Positions 5,100-5,352 of a stretch of 64,000 bases of DNA are shown here, piece after piece. Positions within the stretch are counted from its first letter, which is position 1; each line of letters begins with the position of its first letter. Where the stretch lies: assembly GCF_988243305.1 (NCBI RefSeq), contig NZ_OZ547136.1; one strand, 5' to 3'. The notes under the pieces were generated by a model. That model was given only the letters and a program-made list of their open reading frames with translations. It had not been told where the DNA came from and did not search any database. Position numbers and translations under genes: made by a program.

Positions 5100-5172
5100 G
5101 GCCCTTTAGCTCAGTGGTGAGAGCGAGCGACTCATAATCGCCAGGTCGCTGGTTCAAATCCAGCAAGGGCCA
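5100..5172 (+). tRNA. tRNA with CAU anticodon (Met or lysidine-modified Ile2)
   Basis: Cloverleaf read manually: acceptor GGCCCTT/AAGGGCC, D-arm GCTC/GAGC, anticodon loop CTCATAA, T-arm with TTCAAAT loop; CCA not encoded. Confidence 0.8.
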
Positions 5173-5275
5173 TCATCACAAACCGCCATTAGCTTATCAG
5201 GAAGAGCAGACGACACGATAACAGGGTTGTTGGTGCGGGGGCGGGTCCCCGATGGCGGTCCATTATCGGTATTCA

Positions 5276-5352
5276 GCGTTGTTAGCTCAGCCGGACAGAG
5301 CAATTGCCTTCTAAGCAATCGGTCACTGGTTCGAATCCAGTACAGCGCGCCA
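5276..5352 (+). tRNA. tRNA-Arg (UCU anticodon, reads AGA)
   Basis: Acceptor GCGTTGT/ACAGCGC, anticodon stem ATTGC/GCAAT with loop CTTCTAA, T-loop TTCGAAT, encoded CCA end. Confidence 0.85.

Follow-up and report, generated by a model that had tools for sequence, protein, structure and literature searches.

The closest described counterparts of the tRNA genes studied here are found in Stx-converting lambdoid phages of Escherichia coli. In the annotation of phage Stx2a_WGPS8 (AP012540), ileZ, argN and argO are located between Q and stx2AB, and in that of the Stx2e phage phiP27 (NC_003356), ileZ and argO are located between a DNA methyltransferase gene and stx2e. Three tRNAs around stx2a, two of which are for Arg and one of which is labeled Met, have also been described (PMC7946995). 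That the cluster had been named before is evident from the two GenBank annotations together with PMC7946995 and PMC7547250. Our full-text literature search returned nothing that names ileZ, argN and argO together, and searching for ileZ alone returned unrelated words.

The host counterparts of these phage genes in E. coli K-12, ileX/ileY and argU, are core genes. Phages 933W and Sp5 are presumably further carriers of the ileZ-argN-argO cluster of Stx phages. The tRNA clusters of phages T4 and T5 also provide tRNAs for codons that are used more by the phage than by its host. They are, however, larger, belong to lytic phages and are unrelated in sequence. Some of the T4 tRNA genes lack an encoded CCA, and the 3' ends of these tRNAs are completed by the processing and CCA-adding enzymes of the host.

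In this study, a stretch of 64 kb of DNA, referred to as the window, was analyzed over its whole length. A prophage occupies about positions 1-38600 at ompW, which has been named as a prophage integration site (PMC3603311), and is followed by host genes that include yciE and the trp operon and extend to acnA. The prophage has no Shiga toxin genes. Its tRNA gene pair is, as judged by sequence comparison, an ordinary copy of the already known ileZ-argN-argO rare-codon tRNA cluster of lambdoid E. coli and Stx prophages, because the named GenBank copies align across the whole cluster. The alignment of the window with AP012540 and NC_003356 had a mean column identity of 89%. Very probably, this copy supplies decoders of AUA, AGA and AGG to a codon-biased prophage, through a promoter of its own and through late read-through. 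The features discussed below are listed in Table 1.

Table 1. Features in and around the tRNA cluster of the window.
Feature	Coordinates	Strand	Basis and remarks
Q antitermination protein gene, 273 aa	2605..3426	+	Pfam PF03589 Antiterm, E 2e-49; "antitermination protein" in RefSeq relatives
PR'-like late promoter	3432..3471	+	-35 TTGATT 3432-3437; -10 TAAATT 3454-3459; AACGAT pause motif 3466-3471
tR'-like intrinsic terminator	3509..3532	+	CCCGCCACCTGGCGGG then TTTTTTAT; terminator scan, 6 G-C pairs then T run; strong
Small ORF, 65 aa	3653..3850	+	Hypothetical in RefSeq relatives; Pfam TrmB winged-helix, E 0.0026, below curated cut-off
Second, weaker terminator-like hairpin	3837-3854	+	Terminator scan
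DNA N6/N4 methyltransferase gene	4001..5050	+	Pfam PF01555, E 2e-44; "DNA-methyltransferase" in RefSeq
Promoter-like site	5062..5090	+	TTGCAG-17 nt-TATTAT, then 9-nt C-rich stretch to tRNA +1; locus comparison
ileZ, tRNA-Ile2, anticodon CAU, for AUA (predicted)	5100..5172	+	ARAGORN, Rfam, K-12 comparison; 5173-5175 TCA
argN remnant, tRNA-like pseudogene (most likely)	5183..5262	+	Alignment with Stx2a-phage argN and phiP27; fold
argO, tRNA-Arg, anticodon UCU, for AGA and AGG (predicted)	5276..5352	+	ARAGORN, Rfam; CCA end encoded
AT-rich variable cargo slot	5353..6859	.	Base composition
Unannotated ORF, 118 codons	5460-5816	+	No family match; 9 AGA/AGG/AUA
DUF3927/TciB-like ORF	5852-5983	+	Pfam DUF3927
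STnc100 sRNA with own terminator	6049-6238	+	Rfam RF02076, 132 bits
iraM-like anti-adaptor gene	6264-6599	-	NCBIfam NF007393 IraM, 162 bits; GC 0.35; 6 AUA in 111 codons
SASA-family esterase, start of late lysis region	6860-8713	+	Pfam SASA/DUF1737/DUF6645; RefSeq relatives
P21-type holin	8864-9079	+	Pfam Phage_holin_2_1; RefSeq relatives

Identity of the Two tRNA Genes

ARAGORN identified exactly two tRNA genes in the whole window, which possess the anticodons CAT and TCT, respectively. The same two genes scored 72.5 and 68 bits with Rfam RF00005 (E-values of 6e-14 and 1e-12; gathering score of 29), and both are far above chance. Their anticodons and boundaries agree to the nucleotide with the first-pass annotation of this DNA, which was made from the sequence alone. 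RefSeq tRNA annotation is based on tRNAscan-SE and was used as a proxy for it. In NZ_CP142915, RefSeq (PGAP) labels a 100% identical stretch tRNA-Ile and tRNA-Arg, with no pseudogene flag on either. Two details were absent from the first-pass annotation: an argN remnant in the 103-nt spacer between the genes, and TCA instead of CCA after the discriminator base of ileZ.

The CAU tRNA, which had been read as either Met or Ile2, is of the Ile2 type. The identity of ileZ was 88.2% to ileX of K-12 (67/76 positions), 67.1% to metT and 59.2% to metZ. By reading of the sequence, A73, U12-A23, C29-G41, A37 and A38 are all present, which we take to be identity elements for IleRS. ileZ also carries the acceptor pairs C4-G69 and C5-G68, at which metT has U4-A69 and A5-U68 instead. 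TilS of E. coli requires both of these pairs (PMC1635315), so the lysidine determinants for which the first-pass annotation had suggested looking are in place.

An elongator tRNA-Met would agree with the ARAGORN label, which is Met because this tool names tRNAs by the anticodon alone, and with many GenBank phage records that call the CAU tRNA tRNA-Met. However, tRNA-Met and tRNA-Ile2 are indistinguishable to anticodon-only tools (PMC1635315), RefSeq annotates tRNA-Ile, and the identities and acceptor pairs given above side with ileX against metT, which makes a tRNA-Met extremely unlikely. By its sequence, the CAU tRNA is an Ile2 tRNA, predicted to read AUA. Nine tRNA-Ile(CAT) genes were reported for E. 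coli O157:H7, the highest number among the genomes analyzed (PMC1635315).

The UCU tRNA is a tRNA-Arg for AGA, as the first-pass annotation had it, and is predicted to read AGG too. argO differs from the argO of Stx phages by one base, A69G, by which the U4-A69 pair becomes a U4.G69 wobble pair. Counting this pair, all seven acceptor pairs of argO are standard (Rfam). The A69G allele was found in 7 of about 90 IMG/VR copies. The anticodon loop of argO is CUUCUAA, its D loop (...GGA...) has an A after G18-G19 as in argU, and A20 and C35 are also as in argU. The UCU anticodon, A20 and C35 are presumably identity elements for ArgRS.

Similar to ileZ and argO, ileX/ileY and argU of K-12 have the same anticodons and anticodon loops. 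The TilS determinants are common to ileX and ileZ, but the G.U pair of ileX is replaced by an A27.C43 mismatch in ileZ. The D loop with A20 is common to argU and argO, but their acceptor, anticodon and T stems differ. Moreover, the K-12 genes belong to the core genome, whereas ileZ and argO of the window are prophage-borne.

Conservation and 3' End of ileZ

ileZ is highly conserved: 108 of 118 IMG/VR copies were identical across the whole 76-nt gene, of which the 3' 42 nt were identical by construction of the search. In the window, C74T at position 5173 turns the encoded CCA end into TCA (A73-TCA), whereas native tRNA genes of E. coli encode the 3' CCA. A 30-mer across this site detected the TCA form in only one of 5426 complete E. 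coli genomes, that of B19374 (NZ_CP142915), and CCA in the same context in 1743 genomes. None of the 118 IMG/VR copies had the TCA form. The window is from another assembly than B19374, because the morphogenesis genes of the two differ, and the presence of TCA in both assemblies renders a sequencing error unlikely. That this allele is common to the two, although their prophages differ elsewhere, suggests that the segment has moved by recombination.

During tRNA maturation in E. coli, a precursor without an encoded CCA needs 3' trimming and the CCA-adding enzyme. ileZ with a TCA end may thus be impaired, but it need not be dead, and its tRNA type is unaffected by the missing CCA.

Distribution of the Cluster and Comparison with Stx Phages

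A 381-base query around the pair matched 3060 of 5426 complete E. coli genomes, at roughly 7600 places altogether and at up to 13 per genome. The RefSeq annotation under these matches reads DNA-methyltransferase, tRNA-Ile, tRNA-Arg. The same query matched 289 phage records, most of which are of Stx2-converting phages. Among 119 IMG/VR contigs with this ileZ, 61 have the anticodon order CAU-UCG-UCU and 30 have CAU-UCU as in the window. The intact tRNA genes of the window number two and not three, and the two-tRNA form is itself a known common variant. As in the named copies, the cluster is downstream of Q, PR' and tR' and upstream of a variable slot and the lysis genes, all on one strand.

Gene order, orientation, position and the upstream promoter-like site of the window are the same as those of Stx-converting lambdoid phages, such as Stx2a_WGPS8. 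ileZ of these phages is the same as that of the window except for the CCA end, and argO is one base off. Different from these phages, the window has no stx genes and instead contains an iraM-like gene, the STnc100 sRNA and a DUF3927 ORF. Moreover, argN of the window is dead, and its ileZ encodes TCA. A methyltransferase gene is present between Q and the tRNAs in the window and in many Stx2 phages, but not in WGPS8. phiP27 has the same layout of methylase gene, ileZ and argO as well as the same replaced arm in its argN remnant. In phiP27, however, the T loop of the remnant is normal, ileZ has a CCA end and stx2e follows argO.

The argN Remnant

In Stx2a phages, argN is an intact tRNA-Arg(UCG). 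The remnant found in the spacer of the window keeps the acceptor, D and T stems as well as the 3' CCA. The anticodon arm, however, has given way to a somewhat longer sequence, for which a stem of 7 bp closed by a loop of 3 nt is predicted, and the T loop reads GCGGGTC where the intact gene has TTCGAGT. Neither ARAGORN nor Rfam, at E<=10, called a third tRNA in the spacer, where only chance-level matches such as YrlA (E of 1.4) were obtained. At least 1231 of the 5426 complete E. coli genomes contain the replaced anticodon arm, and none of the matches listed has a feature annotated there. Because the remnant of phiP27 combines this replaced arm with an unaltered T loop, the arm was replaced before the T loop changed. 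Altered T loops were also found in many argN copies elsewhere.

From its sequence and predicted fold, the argN remnant is most likely a pseudogene. It is very unlikely that it is processed to a tRNA-like RNA that serves a purpose other than decoding, such as punctuation for the processing of ileZ and argO or a decoy for tRNA enzymes.

Prophage Context and Transcription

The DNA that directly follows Q can be aligned with the DNA that directly follows Q of phage lambda, and GGTAAATTTG and AACGATGGG are common to both; in lambda, this region is PR' with its pause motif. By homology, positions 3432-3471 would function as PR'. A strong terminator follows about 50 nt farther on, so that transcription from PR' in the lysogen would end after about 65-70 nt. 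The resulting short RNA would occupy the position of lambda 6S RNA, or StxS. A terminator right after PR' is the lambdoid layout (PMC7547250).

The first-pass annotation placed the tRNA genes between Q and the cargo. They are indeed downstream of Q on the strand of the late genes, but they do not follow Q directly, as a small ORF and the DNA methyltransferase gene intervene. phiP27 and many Stx2 phages also have the latter gene in front of their tRNAs. The tRNA genes had also been assigned to the late transcript. This assignment is supported by their position downstream of Q, PR' and tR' on the same strand, which places them some 1.6 kb into the late unit that depends on Q. It appears to be incomplete, however, given that a promoter-like site is found 9 nt upstream of ileZ and that work on a lysogen carrying the Stx2a phage Sp5 mapped a primary start from which these tRNAs are transcribed (PMC7547250).

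This promoter-like site was found by comparison of loci. A generic promoter scan omitted it, as it matches 8 of 12 consensus positions by reading and the threshold was 9. Of 115 related IMG/VR loci, 100 had TATTAT in register and a further 11 were one base off. A TTGNNN -35 element was located 17 nt upstream of TATTAT even where the flanks were unrelated, such as a methylase end, a terminator or other genes. Judging from these comparisons, the cluster is probably served by a promoter of its own, and its tRNAs may be produced in the lysogen.

Some other features of the window were also observed. The early region of the prophage contains a hok/sok type I toxin-antitoxin locus at 396-721 (Rfam sok, 117 bits; hokD ORF at 566-721), and a match to Rfam IS009 (224 bits) is located at 36557-36755, within the tail-fibre assembly region. 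In the host part, the sRNA STnc180 (Rfam, 200 bits) is found between cysB and acnA at 60903-61105. Finally, an insertion of two ORFs at 51799-53119 between rluB and cobO, encoding 333 aa with a lipoprotein-like N-terminus and 102 aa, respectively, is absent at this site in B19374.

The Cargo Slot Downstream of argO

The DNA downstream of argO is AT-rich, as originally noted, with a GC content of 0.31-0.45 compared with about 0.52 in the flanks. It contains the iraM-like gene, the DUF3927/TciB-like ORF and the STnc100 sRNA, which a 2026 preprint relates to the prophage sRNA PasD. The ORF at 5460-5816 had no family match and is unannotated in RefSeq relatives and in phage mEp460. Its near-identical copies showed few differences, which were mostly amino-acid changing. 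This ORF would have been the best support for tRNAs that serve the cargo, but in view of these three properties it is probably not a gene.

The homology between the window and Stx phages stops just after argO. When the 400 bases following argO were compared among 84 IMG/VR loci that share this gene, they fell into 11 unrelated classes, whose GC content ranged from 0.38 to 0.56, and stx2A was found in only 10 of these loci. Given that so many unrelated classes follow the same genes, the tRNA cluster is not tailored to the cargo of the window. The first-pass annotation had suggested that rare-codon tRNAs at this position can boost the translation of AT-rich cargo and late genes; the same cluster precedes at least 11 unrelated types of cargo. 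Judged from these comparisons, the cluster stays in place at the left end of a slot whose contents are exchanged, and it is no accessory of any one cargo.

In some IMG/VR loci, including L031, L032, L044 and L056, ileZ is followed by tRNA-Lys(UUU), tRNA-Thr(UGU) and tRNA-Gly(UCC) and not by argN and argO. The acceptor stem of the Lys tRNA is argN-like, which suggests that anticodons were switched within the slot.

The position at the edge of the slot also raises the question of whether the cluster persists chiefly as a passenger in decay and as a stretch of homology that is kept for the swapping of cargo and not for a need of tRNAs. Several observations are consistent with this explanation. 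At least 1231 genomes share with the window a dead argN, and many other argN copies have altered T loops. The CCA end of this ileZ is lost, and in six loci argO is cut off inside the anticodon arm. In addition, homology to Stx phages ends just after argO, where the 84 loci diverge into the 11 unrelated classes with stx2A in 10. However, ileZ is near-invariant (108 of 118 copies identical, the 3' 42 nt by construction of the search) and argO is well kept, which would be unexpected for neutral sequence beside the fast-decaying argN. The promoter-like site is likewise kept across different flanks. We therefore regard this explanation as rather unlikely. It should be noted that being carried along for cargo exchange and supplying decoders for rare codons are not mutually exclusive.

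Codon Usage of the Prophage

Codons were counted in 39 prophage genes (9494 codons) and in 18 neighboring host genes (6777 codons), from which the ORF at 5460-5816 was excluded, and were compared with the Fisher test. The genes were mapped onto the window from NZ_CM136155, a closer relative. NZ_CP142915 (B19374) was rejected as a collinear source of annotation, as its morphogenesis genes differ despite the 100% identical tRNA stretch.

The comparison of prophage with host genes, which had been proposed together with the tRNA pair, bore out a bias: AGA, AGG and AUA were 2.5, 10 and 2.8 times commoner in the prophage. Per 1000 codons, AGA occurred 4.3 times in prophage genes and 1.8 times in host genes (odds ratio 2.5, p = 0.005), AGG 4.5 and 0.4 times (odds ratio 10, p = 2e-7) and AUA 7.5 and 2.7 times (odds ratio 2.8, p = 3e-5), respectively. 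The excess was seen in early and late prophage genes alike. It was modest in absolute terms, with 155 AGA, AGG and AUA codons together in the 9494 prophage codons. Different from the prophage as a whole, the annotated cargo genes contained neither AGA nor AGG. They contained 7 AUA codons, six of which are in the iraM-like gene, and this gene is on the minus strand and therefore outside the late transcript. Thus, a bias that rare-codon tRNAs would serve is seen in the prophage at large, in which AGA, AGG and AUA are enriched, but the annotated cargo genes lack AGA and AGG, and the AUA-rich one is on the opposite strand.

CGG, presumably the codon that the dead argN (UCG) would have read, was also more frequent in prophage genes (16.2 per 1000) than in host genes (3.7 per 1000; odds ratio 4.5, p = 1e-15). 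argN is dead despite this high use of CGG. The prophage evidently gets by without the matching tRNA, so such tRNAs may bring little benefit.

That phage tRNAs provide an escape from defenses that target tRNAs is a current idea in the field. Accordingly, ileZ and argO could replace host tRNA-Ile and tRNA-Arg that are cut by anticodon nucleases, be they toxins, colicins or anti-phage systems, at infection or induction. argO and host argU have the same anticodon loop but differ at many positions of their stems, and related phages hold the Lys-UUU, Thr-UGU and Gly-UCC sets in the same slot, both of which would be in line with such a role. According to a 2025 report that bears on this point (PMC12445682), P2 OLD cuts the anticodon arm of tRNAs. 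In the annotated neighborhood, however, nothing in the window ties the cluster to a nuclease. The anticodon stem-loop of ileZ is almost the same as that of ileX, so that an escape from a nuclease cutting ileX is not obvious. Moreover, the three anticodons exactly fit codons over-used by the prophage, which a supply of decoders explains directly. Counter-defense is accordingly improbable as the role of the cluster.

Proposed Function of ileZ and argO

The explanation that we favor is the supply of tRNAs for AUA, AGA and AGG. From the sequences compared here, we infer that the cluster would be expressed, that its tRNAs would be modified and charged and that translation would benefit. Transcription could follow two routes. 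The first would start at the sigma-70-type promoter of the cluster itself, just upstream of ileZ, and would be active in the lysogen. The second would be Q-dependent read-through from PR' after induction. As its CCA is not encoded, the ileZ transcript would have to undergo 3' trimming and the action of the host CCA-adding enzyme before it is chargeable. C34 of ileZ would be converted to lysidine by host TilS, by which the tRNA would be charged with Ile and would read AUA (LAU). argO would read AGA and, less well, AGG. Together, ileZ and argO would top up the small host pools provided by ileX/ileY and argU. The middle gene of the cluster, argN (UCG), would make no contribution, as it appears to be dead in this lineage.

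Implications

GenBank phage records have carried the names of these genes for years, and the cluster is found in over half of the complete E. coli genomes. Its importance lies mainly in correct annotation, given that anticodon-only tools still mislabel ileZ as tRNA-Met. Because the cluster probably has its own promoter, the tRNAs may act in the lysogen on the translation of rare codons of the host, beyond the late phage genes. Finally, given its fixed place at the left edge of a slot for exchangeable cargo, Shiga toxin genes included, the cluster would be a useful landmark for finding such cargo.
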